DNA of 64,000 nt, taken from Octopus vulgaris (lineage: Eukaryota). The notes beneath the pieces were generated by a model. It was not told where the DNA came from. It did no database searches and saw only the letters and a list, made by a program, of their open reading frames with translations. Below, piece after piece: positions 11,792 to 63,550 of this stretch. The position numbers and the translations under genes are program-made. The DNA is taken from assembly GCA_951406725.2 (NCBI GenBank), contig OX597823.1, positions 7,626,001 through 7,690,000 on the forward strand. Reading direction: 5' to 3'. How positions within the stretch are numbered: position 1 is the first letter of the stretch; each line of letters begins with the position of its first letter.

Positions 11792-12432
11792 TTAACCCTT
11801 ACTGTATTTATTTTGAGATGCTCTGTGTTTCTTCCAATAATTTTAAATATAACAAAGAATTTAGTAAAATAACATATCAAGGCGCAGGAGTGGCTGTGTG
11901 GTAAGTAGCTTGCTAAACAACCACATGGTTCCGGGTTCAGTCCCACTGCGTGGCATCTTGGGCAAGTGTCTTCTGCTATAGCCCCGGGCCGACCAATGCC
12001 TTGTGAGTGGATTTGGTAGATGAAAACTGAAAGAAGCCTGTCATATATATGTATATATATATATATGTATGTGTGTGTGTTTGTGTGTCTGTGTTTGTCC
12101 CCCTAGCATTGCTTGACAACCGATGCTGGTGTGTTTACGTCCCCGTCACTTAGCGGTTCGGCAAAAGAGACTGATAGAATAAGTACTGGGCTTACAAAGA
12201 ATAAGTCCCGGGGTCGATTTGCTCGACTAAAGGCGGTGCTCCAGCATGGCTGCAGTCAAATGACTGAAACAAGTAAAAGAGAGTAAAAAAGAAAAGAGTA
12301 TTCAGCTAGTGTTAGGAACATAAATTGTGACTAAGATTTGGTGGAAGATTTGAATTCAAAACTTATGAAAACAAGACATTTATACTAACGAACCAGAGCC
12401 GGTTTCAGCCGGGTTGGTAACGAAAGGGTTAA
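11792..12432 (-). mobile_element. MITE M1 interrupted by SINE B
   Basis: The two halves join into an intact reverse copy with TTAA ends. Confidence 0.8.
11881..12299 (+). mobile_element. SINE family B inserted inside a TTAA MITE
   Basis: Full-length copy that splits the MITE at 11792-12432. Confidence 0.88.
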
Positions 12433-20253: not shown

Positions 20254-20563
20254 GGCACATAAAAAACACCATCCGAGCGTGGCCGTCTGCCAGCCTCGTC
20301 TGGCACCTGTGTAGGGGGCACATAAAAAACACCATCCGAGCGTGACCGTCTGCCAGCCTTGTCTGGCACCTGTGTAGGTGGCACATAAAATCAACCACTA
20401 CACTCTCGGAGTGGTTGGCGTTAGGAAGGGCATCCAGCTGTAGAAACACTGCCAGATCTGACTGGCCTGGTGCAGCCTTCGGGCTTGCCAGACTCCAGCT
20501 GAACCGTCCAACCCATGCTAGCATGGAAAGCGGACGTTAAACGATGATGATGATGATGATGAT
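20254..20563 (+). mobile_element. RTE 3' UTR repeat
   Basis: Same family, with two 63-nt units and a (GAT)n tail. Confidence 0.8.
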
Positions 20564-20973: not shown

Positions 20974-21378
20974 ATTAAAGTATTTAATGTAGTGCTATGT
21001 TATAGTGCAGTGTGTTTTGAAGGATCATTTCTTTTTAAACAATTTTATTTACATACATTTATATGTTTCTGTTCACCGTTCTTGTTATGTTTATATGTGA
21101 TACATCAACCCACATGTGTTTCAATGTCTATACAGCCCAAATACTTATGTGCAATTATGTTGTTTGTATGTGTTTTAAAATTCTTGTTTATTTTCATGTA
21201 TAAATATAACATCCCAAACACATAAACATATACTGAATGTCCATTAAAAGAAGGAAATATACTTATTGGTATGTGTGTATGTATATATATATATATATAT
21301 TTATTTATGTATTATGTATGTGTGTGTGTGTGTGTGTATGTATATATATATTTATGTATATATATATATATATATATA

Positions 21379-21529
21379 AAGGAATACAAAAAATGGGACA
21401 AGAATGCAAAACATCCAGACAGATGATACAAAAGAGGGTCAAGAAAAAACATGGACGGGTCATTCGAAGTTTTCTTTCCTCAGTTGAGTTCCAGATTATC
21501 TTTGCAATTTCAGCTGGTTATACTCGAGA
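21379..21529 (-). mobile_element. (TA)n-associated element, truncated copy of the 63212-63476 family
   Basis: Colinear similarity to 63212-63347 (gggacaagaa.gcaaaacat...cattcgaag...tcagt.gag...caatttc.gctg.tta). Confidence 0.8.
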
Positions 21530-23661: not shown

Positions 23662-25251
23662 GGTGCTTTAATCATTGTCAGTTCTTAATGCTCTTCATTC
23701 ATACTTAGTTGTGAACTTATCTTTACCAGGTATATATATGTATATATTTCTAATACATGTGCTCATATATGTCCTTATATGTAGGTTTTCAGGGGTGGAA
23801 ACAACTGTTCTGTTCAAATAGCTTCAACATAAATTATATCAGAGAAATGTTAAAAAAACAAAAAAGAAGTTTTAATTTTTGTTGCAAGGATAAAATACTA
23901 AATATCTGATATAGTGGTAGTTTTTGTTTTCCTCTTAAACATTATAAATCATACACAATGTAGGGTAACCATGTCTTCTATAGCAAGACACATGCTCTTG
24001 TCCCATTATCATACTTTGGCCTCTCCCACTTCTTAATATCCTCTTGAGATTTACTTGGTGCCAGTAGCACACACACAAAAAAAAAAAAACCCTGTAAAGA
24101 GGGGCATCCAACTGTAGAAAAACTTTCAAATCTGACACTGGGGCTTGCTAGACCCTCTCAAACTATCCATTCCAGCATAGAAAGCAGGCATTAAATAGTG
24201 GTGGTGGTGGTGGTGGCAGCGGCAGTGGCGACAGCTCCTCCTCCTCCCTATTAATCACTCATGTCATTTAGTGTATTTTCAAACCTTTTCCAGGTACCAT
24301 TTTTCTGCAAATACATCTTTTAAAGCTTTCTACAACAATTTCTTCTACAATTTTTTTTCTGCAACTTGCCTCACTGTCAATTATAGTAATATTTCATGGT
24401 TGATTAGTCAGTTGCTGAAGCAGTATCCACAAGTAAAATCAACTACATCAAAAGAAGTCCTACAAATATTAAACATAGAAAACTGCAGGCAAATTTTGAA
24501 AATATATTCCTCTGACTCGCATTGACATTTTTTTTTTCTTTTCCTTGCAATACAATCCTGCAGAATGGTACATGAAAGTATCAAAAATCCTTATCATGAA
24601 TAGAAATTGGTTTCACGAAAGCCTAAGGATATGTTTATTTTATACATACATTGCACATGAAAATGATTGGAAAATATGCAGTTATAAAATATGGAATGAA
24701 ATACATCATACTTCATTGATATTTTCACATCTCACATATTTTTTTTTTCTTTTGAAGACTATTGGTTTAAGTCAATTTAATTGTTTTTTAATCAATAAAA
24801 AGTAGTTCTGTAACCAACTATTTTTTTTTATTTATTTAAATTTTTTTCCTGTACAAAACCACTTCAAAAATTTTCATGGCCATTTCCAAGTCACCATTTC
24901 TAATGATTTTGAAATTAATTTTAACTTTTTTTTTTTTGTAAATCCAGTACATGTAGGTGTGTGTATAAAATATAATGAAATTATTATATACAGTGCTCAG
25001 GTGCACCACAACTTGTCAAAAGTACGTATAGAGTATATGCAGTAATGTACAAATGTCTGGAAAGCGAACAGTGTATGTATATATAACTGTATGTGTGTGT
25101 ATGTATGTATATATACACACACAAACACATACATCCATAAAGTCAGAAACTATGGAAGGTGAATATATATTTAACCACATGACTTTCATAAGATCTTGGC
25201 TGTTTCACAAACTTCTTCATGTAGTATTAATTTCAGTATGGAAGAAGATAT

Positions 25252-25701
25252 TCTCTTTTACTTTCTTTTACTTGTTTCAGTCATTTGACTGCGGTCATGC
25301 TGGAGCACCGCCTTTAGTCGAGCAAATCGACCCCGGGACTTATTCTTTGTAAGCCCAGTACTTATTCTATCGGTCTTTTTTGCCGAACCTCTAAGTGACG
25401 GGGACGTAAACACACCAGCATCGGTTGTCAAGCAATGCTAGAGGGACAAACACAGACACACAAACATATACATACACATACATACATATATATACATATA
25501 TACGACAGGCTTCTTTCAGTTTCCATCTACCAAATCCACTCACAAGGCATTGGTCGGCCCGAGGCTATAGCAGAAGACACTTGCCCAAGATGCCACGCAG
25601 TGGGACTGAACCCAGAACCATGTGGTTGGTAGGCAAGCTACTTACCACACAGCCACTCCTGTGCCTGGTCGGCCCGAGGCTATAGCAGAAGACACTTGCC
25701 C
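25252..25701 (-). mobile_element. SINE family B with a short internal segment duplicated next to its 5' end
   Basis: Full copy 25252-25640; tggtcggcccgaggctatagcagaagacacttgccc occurs again at about 25666-25701. Confidence 0.85.
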
Positions 25702-36240: not shown

Positions 36241-36649
36241 CTCTTTTACTCTTTTACTTGTTTCAGTCATTTGACTGTGGCCATGCTGGAGCACCGCCTT
36301 TAATCGAGCAACTCGACCCCGGGACTTATTCTTTTGTAAGCCCAGTACTTATTCTATCGGTCTCTTTTGCCGAACCGCTAGGTAACGGGGACATAAACAC
36401 ACCAGCATCGGTTGTCAAGCGATGTTGGGGTGTACAAACACAGACACACAAACATATACACATACACATACATATATATATACATATATACAACGGGCTT
36501 CTTTCAGTTTCCGTCTGCCAAATCCACTCACAAGGCTTTGGTCGGCCCGAGGCTATAGTAGAAGACACTTGCCCAAGGTGCCACGCAGTGGTACTGAACC
36601 CGGGACCATGTGGTTGGTAAACAAGCTACTTACCACACAGCCACTCCTG
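36241..36649 (-). mobile_element. SINE family B
   Basis: Reverse-complement full-length copy. Confidence 0.88.
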
Positions 36650-37124
36650 TAATGCCTATTCATTCACATTGTTTTGAATTAAACATGCATTATCTTGCAG
36701 CTTTGAGATTTGGATGATGTAACTAGTTTTCGTTTTTTAGAATGGCATTGTAGGGTATGTGTGGGAGGCCAGATGTGGCTGATTTGAACATAATTTGGTA
36801 GAATATTTTGGCCAGATATGGCCAGTTTAAATGTTAAAGGGTTAGTTTGATGCTTTTATTCAAAGCTTTGTGTTTCTAGATCGTATCAGGTGATTTTTTT
36901 TTTTATGCTGACCTTGCTGCTTATATCTCCTGATTGTTCTAAGTTGGCACGTAAATACTTAATCTTGGTGACCTGCATAATTCCAGAATTTGAATATTTA
37001 TAAAACTATTTAAAGACGTATTTTGATAATGTGAACATACGAAATTTGATTTTTAAAATATATGACGAAATTTATTGTAATATGGCCTTTATCTAATTCT
37101 ATTTTGGAAGTTATATGAATATAG

Positions 37125-54249: not shown

Positions 54250-55249
54250 ATTGAATTTTACTTCTTGTTTAATTCTTTCTGTTGAATACAAGTTTCCATG
54301 CAAGTTTTCTCTTCCTTTTGTCCTATATTTTTCTTATTTGATGCTGAGTTTTATTTTTGTTGTATTCTTGCAGTTATTTTTGCCTTGTGGTATTTATTTT
54401 AGGAACTGTTCATAATATAGTTGTAGAATGTATGTACCACTTATGTCTATGTTGGGAATTGTGAACGTCTTCCTACATTTTGCTGCAACTGTTAATTTGG
54501 TTGTAAGTCACAGTCGATCCCCTTCAAGAGTGACATGCCTAAATCCACTCCACTTACCCCACTCATGCTTTTTCTCCTTTATCTTTATTTCTTTTAATTA
54601 TTTCCTTCTCTTGTCCTTTAATTTTCTGTAAATTCCTTTACTTGGTCGCTCATCATTCTTGTTCTTTGAAAATTTATCAACTTTCATTTGTTAATTTATG
54701 ACTCACTATATGCTGATACTCAAGTTTCAATTATCATTTTTATTTTTTCAACAGACAACTGTCTGGTACTATAAAATAAAGGTTCCAAATTCACTAATAA
54801 CCTCATTTAGTGCAATTAAGTTAATCTGTCTTCAATACAGTCCTACACTATTTCTCACATACATATCAGAAGGTTATCTGCCTCTCTATATTTATGCAAG
54901 CTCCTCCCTCATATATATATCATAACTCACCAGATATCAGTTGTATTACTTTTTTTACCTTTGTCTGAGCAGATGAATATAGATCACATGTAATATGATA
55001 TTATATTATGCCACAATCATTTATATTCAGGTTGTGTCTGAACCATGTATTGTTGAAACAATCATAATAAAGGAATAAATGTAATACCATCACCTCCATT
55101 ATATACATACATATATATATATAAGTAGGTGAATGAATTATCCTATGTTTATCATCAGCATGGAAACATATGTCGAGAGTAAAGGAATTTTGTTAACATC
55201 TTCGTTCGACTCCATTCTTTCATTTATTCATATATATATATATATATAT

Positions 55250-56268
55250 CATCATCATCATCATCGTTTAACATCCGCTTTCCATGCTAGCATGGGTTGG
55301 ACAGTTCAACTGGGGTCTGGGAAGCCCGAAGGCTGCACCAGGCCAGTCAGATGTGGCAGTGTTTCTACAGCTGGATGCCCTTCCTAACGCCAACCACTCC
55401 GAGAATGTAGTGGGTGATTTTATGTGCCACCGACACAGGTGCCAGACGAGGCTGGCAGACGGCCACGCTCGGATGGTGTTTTTTATGTGCCACCGACACA
55501 GGTGCCAGACAAGGCTGGCAGACGGCCACGCTCGGATGGTGTTTTCTTATGTGTCACCGACACAGGTGCCAGACGAGGCTGGCGGACGGCCACGCTCGGA
55601 TGGTGTTTGTTACGTGCCCTCAGCACGGAGGCCAGTCATTGCGGTACTGGCTACGGTCACGTTCGGATGGTTTTCTTATGTGCCACCGGCACTGGTACCA
55701 CAAGGATACAAATTCCATTGATGTTCATCTATTTTGATTTGGTTCGATTTGATTCGATATGATTCGATTCTCACTTGCCTCAACAGGTCTTCACAAGTGT
55801 CACAAGAAGGAAGGTATGCACAGGTGGACTGACTACGTCCCAGGTAGGGGCCACGGATTATGGCTTCACTAGTCTTGCCGGGTCTTCTCACGCACAGCAT
55901 ACTTCCATAGGTCTCGGTCTCTAGTCATTTCCATGGTGAGACCTAACGTCCGAAGGTCGTGCTTCACCACCTCGTCCCAGGTTTTCCTGGGTCTACCTCT
56001 TCCACGGGTTCCCTCAACTGCTAGGGATTGGCACTTTCTCACACACCTATCTTCATCCATTCTCGCCACATGACCATACCAGCGCAATCGTCTCTCTTGC
56101 ACACAACAACTGATGCTTCTTAGGTACCTGGATACAGCATACATCCACACGTCTCCGTTCAAGCAGCTCTACAATCTCTCCAGACCTACCTTTCAATGTG
56201 CCAACGTTGAGCGTGCCAACTCTGAGGGTTTGGGAGGTGTGGGCATCAGAGACCCTGGGACGAGGGAC
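55250..56268 (-). mobile_element. Internally deleted (bipartite) RTE LINE
   Basis: APE N-terminus LRVGTLNVGTLKGRSGEIVELLERRRVDVCCIQ fused to the ORF C-terminus RRLRWYGHVARM...GRGRPRKTW..., then a 3' UTR with three 63-nt tandem units and a (GAT)n tail. Confidence 0.85.
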
Positions 56269-62747: not shown

Positions 62748-62782
<35 letters not shown>

Positions 62783-62789
62783 TATTTTC

Positions 62790-63182
62790 TTTTATTCTTT
62801 TACTTGTTTCAGTCATTTGACTGTGGCCAGGCTGGAGTACTACCTTTAGTTGAGCAAATCAATCCCAGGACTTACTCTTTGTAAGCTTAGTACTTATTCT
62901 ATCGGTCTCTTTTGCCGAACCACTAAGTTACAAGAGCATAATAAACACACCATCATCGGCTGCTAAGCAATGATGGGAGACAAACAATCAAACATACATA
63001 CATACATACATATATATATACATACGATGAACTACTTTCAGTTTCCATCGACCAAATCCACTCACAAGGCTTTGGTCAGCCTGAGACTATAGTAGAAGAC
63101 ACTTGCCCAAGGTGCCACGCAATGGGACTGAACCCAGAACCATGTGGTTGGAAAGCAAGCTTCTTACCACACAGTCACTCTT
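62790..63182 (-). mobile_element. SINE family B downstream of exon F
   Basis: Reverse-complement full-length copy. Confidence 0.85.
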
Positions 63183-63211
63183 GCACATATATATATATAT
63201 ATATATATATG

Positions 63212-63476
63212 TAAAAAAATACAAACTGGGACAAGAACGCAAAACATTTAGAAGACGATACAAAAAACACGGACAGGACATTCGAAGCCTTCAATCTTCA
63301 GTCGAGAACCGGATCATCCTCACAATTTCGGCTGATTAATCTTGCGATTGCTCCGGTCTGGCCAGCCCGAAAGGAAAATCTAAGCCAAGCGCATTAGATT
63401 CCTTGGAAGAAAGCCTCGAATGTATACAAAACAAGGACGGAAAACGGACGATGTTACACAAATGAGAATACAAAAA
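63212..63476 (-). mobile_element. (TA)n-flanked ~265-nt element with a highly structured hammerhead-like core
   Basis: TA repeats on both sides, U-rich flanks on the - strand, 144-nt core closed by a 14-bp helix. Confidence 0.75.
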
Positions 63477-63550
63477 TATATACATATATATATATATATA
63501 TCAATATATGTATCAAATGAAATAAATGAAAAACAGGACACAGAAGATGT

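Follow-up and report, generated by a model that had tools for sequence, protein, structure and literature searches.

The described hammerhead ribozyme closest to the motif considered here is type SGC (HRIMA-1 and variants). According to the available passages of Eckert et al. (2023; PMC10085705), the reversed strand order of this type was found and shown to cleave in vitro, and its members have a stem I-stem II linker of about 3 nt and a helix between stems I and II (I-II helix). The same passages assume that CUGANGA and its strand of stem II are never apart by more than 1-2 nt, and they report type SGC from metatranscriptomes only and from no genome of a known organism. In the supplement text at hand, a word search found no Octopus, Acropora, Metazoa or Eukaryota. 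Type CSG, represented there by two metagenomic sequences, has the same reversed cyclic order and also a I-II helix.

Penelope-like elements are the second point of comparison. In the accessible text of Craig et al. (2021; PMC8557442), Naiad elements target (TA)n, form partial tandems and inverted copies, and are truncated at their 5' ends. They are reported there without canonical hammerheads; the Ovul and Esco entries are labelled 'HHR_half_core', and 'HHR_core' marks are also present, neither label being explained in that text. Canonical Penelope-like elements carry a type I hammerhead with the canonical nested order in their repeated terminal part, and have non-autonomous derivatives (passages of bioRxiv 10.64898/2026.07.22.740005); the Naiad passages of that preprint name no such motif.

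We analysed a 64,000-nt stretch of the Octopus vulgaris genome (contig OX597823.1; hereafter the window), for which an earlier note had proposed a hammerhead-like ribozyme with an unusual strand order near one end. The motif is confirmed to be real, as one decayed copy of a large family, and the strand positions given on the - strand were all recovered when rechecked in the sequence. We conclude that the locus is very probably a decayed copy of a hammerhead, likely self-cleaving, that belongs to the 3' end of a repeat; this repeat has no ORF, is inserted in (TA)n and is likely mobilised by Naiad elements. The parts of the locus are as follows.

63197..63478, - strand: decayed repeat copy, subfamily A, 5'-truncated, ORF-less and Penelope-like, flanked by (TA)n runs; copies share the 3' end and vary at the 5' end
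63409..63422, - strand: helix X, 5' strand
63368..63406, - strand: hairpin P, abutting G10.1; a private change at 63369 disrupts its second pair
63362..63367, - strand: 5' strand of stem II (GGCTGG), G10.1 being 63367; detached from CUGANGA
63355..63361, - strand: 5' strand of the stem I-II interaction helix (CCAGACC); 7 of 7 pairs, with other letters, in subfamilies B and C
63347..63351, - strand: 3' strand of stem III (GCAAT), with U16.1 at its end
63345..63346, - strand: predicted scissile bond, 3' of C17 (63346) in AUC, placed by hammerhead analogy and by the step in genomic 5' ends
63340..63345, - strand: 3' strand of stem I (GCAAGA); 63345 is a private change
63336..63339, - strand: 4-nt linker from stem I to stem II; 1-5 nt across 15 representatives
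63322..63335, - strand: 3' strand of stem II (TCAGCC), GAAA (63329-63326) and 5' strand of stem III (TTGT)
63309..63315, - strand: 3' strand of the interaction helix (GATCCGG)
63295..63307, - strand: 5' strand of stem I (TCTCGA) and core CUGAAGA (63301-63295); 63304 is a private change
63279..63292, - strand: 3' strand of helix X (X'); preceded by UU in the window copy, and abutting A9 in subfamily B and 10 metagenomic loci
63212..63278, - strand: 3' tail to the shared end at (TA)n
21358..21529, - strand: second copy, subfamily B, starting at most 2 bases from the predicted cut

Six positions (63369, 63356, 63345, 63322, 63304 and 63275) set the window copy apart from 33 aligned relatives. Stem I forms 6 of 6 pairs in all 33 other copies and 4 of 6 in the window copy, where both mismatches are private. 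The 4 of 6 pairs seen earlier thus reflect decay of this copy, which is probably impaired as a ribozyme. The hairpin previously drawn at 63404-63371 is present, but it extends from 63406 to 63368 and abuts G10.1. The second copy is also real, but it belongs to another subfamily, B, and it lacks the upstream strands because its start sits so close to the predicted cut. Next to the 3' (TA)n of the element lies an abundant SINE-like repeat (window 62781-63184), with further copies at 1127-1548, 11874-12293, 25250-25666 and 36251-36650. The window also holds 63-nt tandem units within a 298-nt inverted repeat pair, 95% complementary (20254-20560 and 55248-55618).

The strand blocks run in the order stem II 5' strand with the I-II helix, cleavage block, GAAA block and CUGANGA block; these four are framed by X and P, and they recur with unrelated stems in Naiad 3' UTRs. 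CUGANGA, GAAA and NUH are present and conserved, with the triplets AUC, GUA, GUC, GUU, AUA, AUU and CUC and a variable N7. The G10.1-C11.1 pair occurs in 14 of 14 families or loci, under a descriptor that demanded G10.1 and C or U at 11.1. Several pair types were seen at most positions of stems I-III (14 representatives). The compensatory change in stem I pointed out earlier between the two window copies separates subfamily A (TCAAGA/TCTTGA) from subfamily B (TCGAGT/ACTCGA). In subfamily B, stem II forms 6 of 6 pairs and the interaction helix 7 of 7; the latter is also complete in subfamily C, with a sequence differing from those of the other subfamilies, so the extra helix that had been proposed from only 5 of 7 pairs in the window is borne out. 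A competing register, also raised in the earlier note, could form in subfamily A; the CCAG/CUGG register is the one that subfamilies B and C favour. The proposed pairing scheme, with its opening between A9 and G10.1, thus holds across subfamilies and unrelated Naiad elements.

Loci that passed a strand-order descriptor numbered 28 of 30 in subfamily A, 8 of 30 among older loci of subfamily B and 5 of 20 in a third family (family N, below), and 40 of 48 unselected full copies passed the test of the stems. The descriptor found 84 matches in 718 kb of fetched, selected loci and 1 in 1.44 Mb of shuffles. Since its filters include stems I-III (X and P were not filtered on), perfect pairing of these stems among its matches holds by construction. 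As the earlier note had anticipated, Rfam gave no match at the gathering score in the window, nor in 20 loci, and none of its hammerhead models matched around the motif up to E 10; the nested order of types I-III (CUGANGA-GAAA-UH) was not found.

Like type SGC, the motif has the order cleavage block, GAAA block and CUGANGA with all core letters, a short linker between stems I and II (1-5 nt) and a helix linking the other ends of these stems (5-13 pairs; 15 representatives). The reversed order, which was upheld here, is therefore not new, because types SGC and CSG have been published and cleave, as the passages of PMC10085705 state; the same holds for the short linker and the I-II helix. The earlier note, which knew of no description of the motif, needs correcting on this point. 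What differs from type SGC is the 5' strand of stem II, which lies upstream and is reached through helix X and hairpin P instead of standing within 2 nt of A9. The split form corresponds to the CSG circle opened between A9 and G10.1, whereas in CSG itself block C is contiguous and first, with no X/P insert. For a split of the CUGANGA/stem II block, or for such a ribozyme in animal genomes, we found no description in our search, which covered few subscription papers. The passages at hand of PMC3088659, PMC10162972 and PMC13725137, and the main-text passages of bioRxiv 10.64898/2026.07.22.740005, hold none; to this extent the claim of novelty stands for the core split by X and the hairpin. We regard this split-core, non-circular hammerhead, residing in the tails of Naiad elements and their likely non-autonomous derivatives, as a real variant that is widespread and undescribed in the literature found.

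The copies called for by the earlier note were found throughout the genome (2.8 Gb searched), with the core letters and stems kept and pairs swapped between subfamilies. Subfamily A gave 2,914 first-look candidates, 40 of which were scored (each at least 96% identity), and subfamily B gave 2,273; a pattern across the GAAA and CUGANGA blocks had at least 5,803 matches, and its reversed control had 0. The copies have a common 3' end at (TA)n, about 120-170 bases beyond the site, and a variable 5' end. The longest units (0.7-1 kb) are pyrimidine-rich and without an ORF. Copies form partial tandems and inverted pairs, like Penelope-like elements. The family differs from non-LTR retrozymes in its strand order and in its mostly dispersed, truncated copies, in place of type I tandem monomers; non-LTR retrozymes with type I hammerheads were reportedly described by Cervera and de la Pena in 2014. 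The (TA)n insertion, fixed 3' end, 5' truncation, and partial tandem and inverted copies are all element traits, but they are not diagnostic of Naiad alone because other Penelope-like clades share them.

In this genome, the link to Naiad comes from family N, whose stems are wholly different and which has 279 exact matches to the published Octopus Naiad motif (control 0). It sits about 0.7-1.1 kb downstream of Naiad reverse transcriptase (RT) remnants. Among full-length proteins, the best relatives of this RT carry an N-terminal GIY-YIG; a 160-aa piece of RT used as a query found no homologous proteins. No Naiad ORF joined to subfamilies A-C was found among the fetched loci or behind 20 weaker Naiad RT matches. 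The search for a parent retroelement thus led to Naiad remnants for family N but to no joined ORF for the window subfamily, the Naiad dependence of which is for this reason only inferred. We consider it likely that Naiad elements mobilise this subfamily; it differs from the elements in the available text of PMC8557442 by having no ORF. In the Naiad elements that carry it, the motif lies in the 3' UTR.

A Neptune-type parent was rejected. An ORF of this type lies between two copies in one locus (L091), but it has its own 3' UTR of about 700 nt, and the family sequence occurs in only 3 of 30 loci, always beyond that UTR or on the opposite strand. The Neptune-type Penelope-like family itself is very young (L091:1486-3813 (-), L114-L143), with 100% protein identity in 150 of 150 scored matches and many open frames of 775 aa; its 3' UTR holds CCGAAGA ... 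GAAA in the canonical order, which may be a variant hammerhead. More families of the split layout, with other stems, were seen at L115:3561-3744 (-), L130 near 3278 (-), L176 near 889 (+) and L158 near 736 (+).

The 5' ends of genomic copies were examined in the first 100 listed of the at least 5,803 matches, which had been picked only for blocks downstream of +12; in 99 of them the anchor stood where it was expected. Among these listed matches, 28 of 99 copies have their 5' end in the interval +1 to +12 relative to the predicted cut (26 scored there and two scored at -3, which are without C17 and start at +1), and 3 begin at -36 to -1 (2 in -12 to -1 and 1 in -36 to -13). The rate per base is 0.024 at +1 to +12 as against 0.001 just upstream and 0.003 further up (Fisher p 8e-6; 1e-4 without reassigning the two copies). 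A second sample covered about 15 bases on either side of the site in copies joined to (AT)n (the first 100 each of 442 and 310 matches, giving 182 distinct loci); only 12-13 of the 182 loci among the matches listed keep any base 5' of the cut, by a hand tally. Exact starts at +1 are found in only 5 of the 99 listed copies, the biggest single peak being at an AT microhomology near +10/+11, and in partial tandems the starts of the upstream copies are scattered, with none at +1. Near the site, contig depth falls in the runs guessed to be RNA; run X15 shows the dip too, so that no conclusion follows.

The step in 5' ends would be best explained by partial cleavage, and judged from the genomic sequences it is likely a record of cutting in vivo. 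Stalling of the RT is the alternative: the fold may be real and be chiefly a handle by which the Naiad protein recognises the RNA, with little or no cleavage, and the pile-up of 5' ends would then come from stalling together with AT microhomology. Such a reading fits the 71 of 99 copies among the matches listed that run through the predicted cut, and so came from RNA uncut there, as well as the coincidence of the +10/+11 peak with microhomology; 5' ends past +17 are weakly sampled, and the downstream control from incidental copies is too small. We nevertheless consider it unlikely. AATC stands on both sides of the site (-4 to -1 and +9 to +12), yet among the matches listed about 30 junctions fall at the downstream AATC and 1 at the upstream AATC. 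Elements that are otherwise unrelated retain the catalytic letters and the NUH triplet, and in locus L212 a twister-like RNA fills the same 3' UTR slot. On the preferred reading of partial cleavage, the RNA would cut after AUC, and target-primed reverse transcription would then copy the 3' product, which has the fixed 3' end of the element, into (TA)n; copying from the cut would therefore yield an excess of copies starting at +1 to +12. Since the majority of copies extend across the site, such cutting is likely to be partial or regulated.

In the proposed structure, the blocks would fold into an ordinary hammerhead core, with A9 continuing into X, and P into G10.1. A four-way junction would thus arise from X, P, stem II and the G8-A13/A9-G12 tandem. 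X would stack on P, and stem II on the core, in place of the covalent A9-G10.1 step; the junction modelled in this way may keep stem II stacked on the tandem G-A pairs. As fitted, no more than one base is left unpaired where X starts at A9 and where P ends at G10.1 in subfamily B and 10 metagenomic loci, and two U-U oppositions lie beside the X/P junction in subfamily A. In 9 of 14 representatives, X and P did better than shuffled upstream DNA, with no more than 2 of 150 shuffles equalling them; this strict test was weak for 2 of the 14 and failed for 3, namely the window's subfamily A, family N and L211. A lenient form of this control was not discriminating, at 1258 of 2800 shuffles.

The core might also be completed otherwise, with X and P as bystanders, either as an ordinary type SGC through the strand after A9 or as a dimer of tandem copies. 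A GGCU lying 5 nt past A9 in subfamily A could pair over 4 bp with the 3' strand of stem II, partial tandems exist, and dimeric cleavage has reportedly been published for Penelope hammerheads. This explanation is improbable, as the GGCU is absent from subfamily B, stem II built contiguously after A9 has 0-3 bp in 14 of 15 representatives as against 5-6 bp through the upstream strand in 15 of 15, and a search of 80 Naiad 3' flanks for a contiguous block gave 1 weak alternative. Stem II completed by the upstream strand is therefore the arrangement that we retain.

The same layout was sought in 80 metagenomic Naiad loci, 69 of which had at least 250 bases past the ORF match. Ten of the 80 carry it with unrelated stems on the sense strand of the 3' UTR, and the other 70 are without the motif; the antisense strand gave 0 hits, as did 207 kb of ORF and upstream DNA, and 20 rounds of shuffling gave 1 (0.05 per shuffle). 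After the ORFs of the 70 loci without it, CUGANGA words occur 7 times in the first 2.2 kb, none in context. That short motifs in a repeat fell into this arrangement by chance, as the 4 of 6 pairs of the window stem I and the nested fold of the window fragment (z = -1.98 only) might suggest, has a negligible probability, being opposed by the shuffle, antisense and reversed controls and by recurrence at the same place in unrelated elements, and refuted by this metagenomic test. The carriers have ORFs with an N-terminal GIY-YIG and a C-terminal RT, and DKA in 9 of 10. In a quick RT tree, 9 of 10 carriers fall in one group (support 94) intermixed with non-carriers; because of this mixing, we make no claim of a single origin.

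Published Naiad consensus ends point the same way. By eye and with an unscripted count, we went through 49 of the 54 sequences in the part of PMC8557442 at hand, over their final 380-600 bases, and found the layout in 11 of 49 (Bfor, 3_Chem, Amil, Aacu, Anas, 2_Movir, Plae, EuTe, Obim, Ovul and Esco, the last with a worn stem II). They cover ctenophores, cnidarians, an acanthocephalan, a crustacean and cephalopods, and three of them are near-identical Acropora entries.

Other structures were seen in Naiad tails. Six nematode ends in File S5 of PMC8557442, as far as available (Naiad-1/-2/-3_Nbra, Hcon, Hpol and Asuum), hold by eye contiguous type-CSG hammerheads including the I-II helix. The twister-like RNA of L212 (3076-3135 (+)) scores 28.7 bits against twister-P5 (E 0.029; gathering score 37.6), and the 3' UTR of L270 resembles it by eye, without a score. 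Directly after the stop codon, the 3' UTRs of L258 and L244 have a structured motif (GRCGGGTG ... GCTYAC ... CACCTG) with no fitting Rfam match; the GRCGGGTG ... CACCTG motif, a candidate ribozyme or protein handle, is also present in bivalve and hemichordate Naiad ends among the published sequences at hand. In one Naiad clade (L269, L250, L236, L232, L234 and L260), a shared motif after the stop codon has the complementary ends TACTCCATGA ... TCATTGAGTA. Four Naiad-type proteins (P0046, P0049, P0070 and P0147) have a C-terminal ubiquitin hydrolase (UCH) domain, and the ORF of L210 is 1,344 aa.

As a joint reading, we find it reasonably probable that the motif is a seventh natural hammerhead topology, beyond the scheme of six orders, with the catalytic strand broken between A9 and G10.1 and rebuilt through a four-way junction; that it is the missing ribozyme of Naiad elements from comb jellies to octopus and is active in vivo, the start points of genomic copies being the record of this; and that it takes an interchangeable slot in the tail, which may be filled by split-SGC, CSG, twister-like or one further unnamed structured RNA. 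Such a motif breaks the stated hammerhead rule that CUGANGA and stem II cannot be separated, and it takes non-circular hammerheads from anonymous metatranscriptome contigs to animal genomes, in thousands of copies. Because current descriptors and Rfam miss it, there are likely further hosts not yet counted. Naiads could no longer be called free of hammerheads, as has been reported, and the 'half-core' marks in the text of PMC8557442 at hand would find an explanation. The step in 5' ends makes the role of the ribozyme in Penelope-like transposition directly testable.
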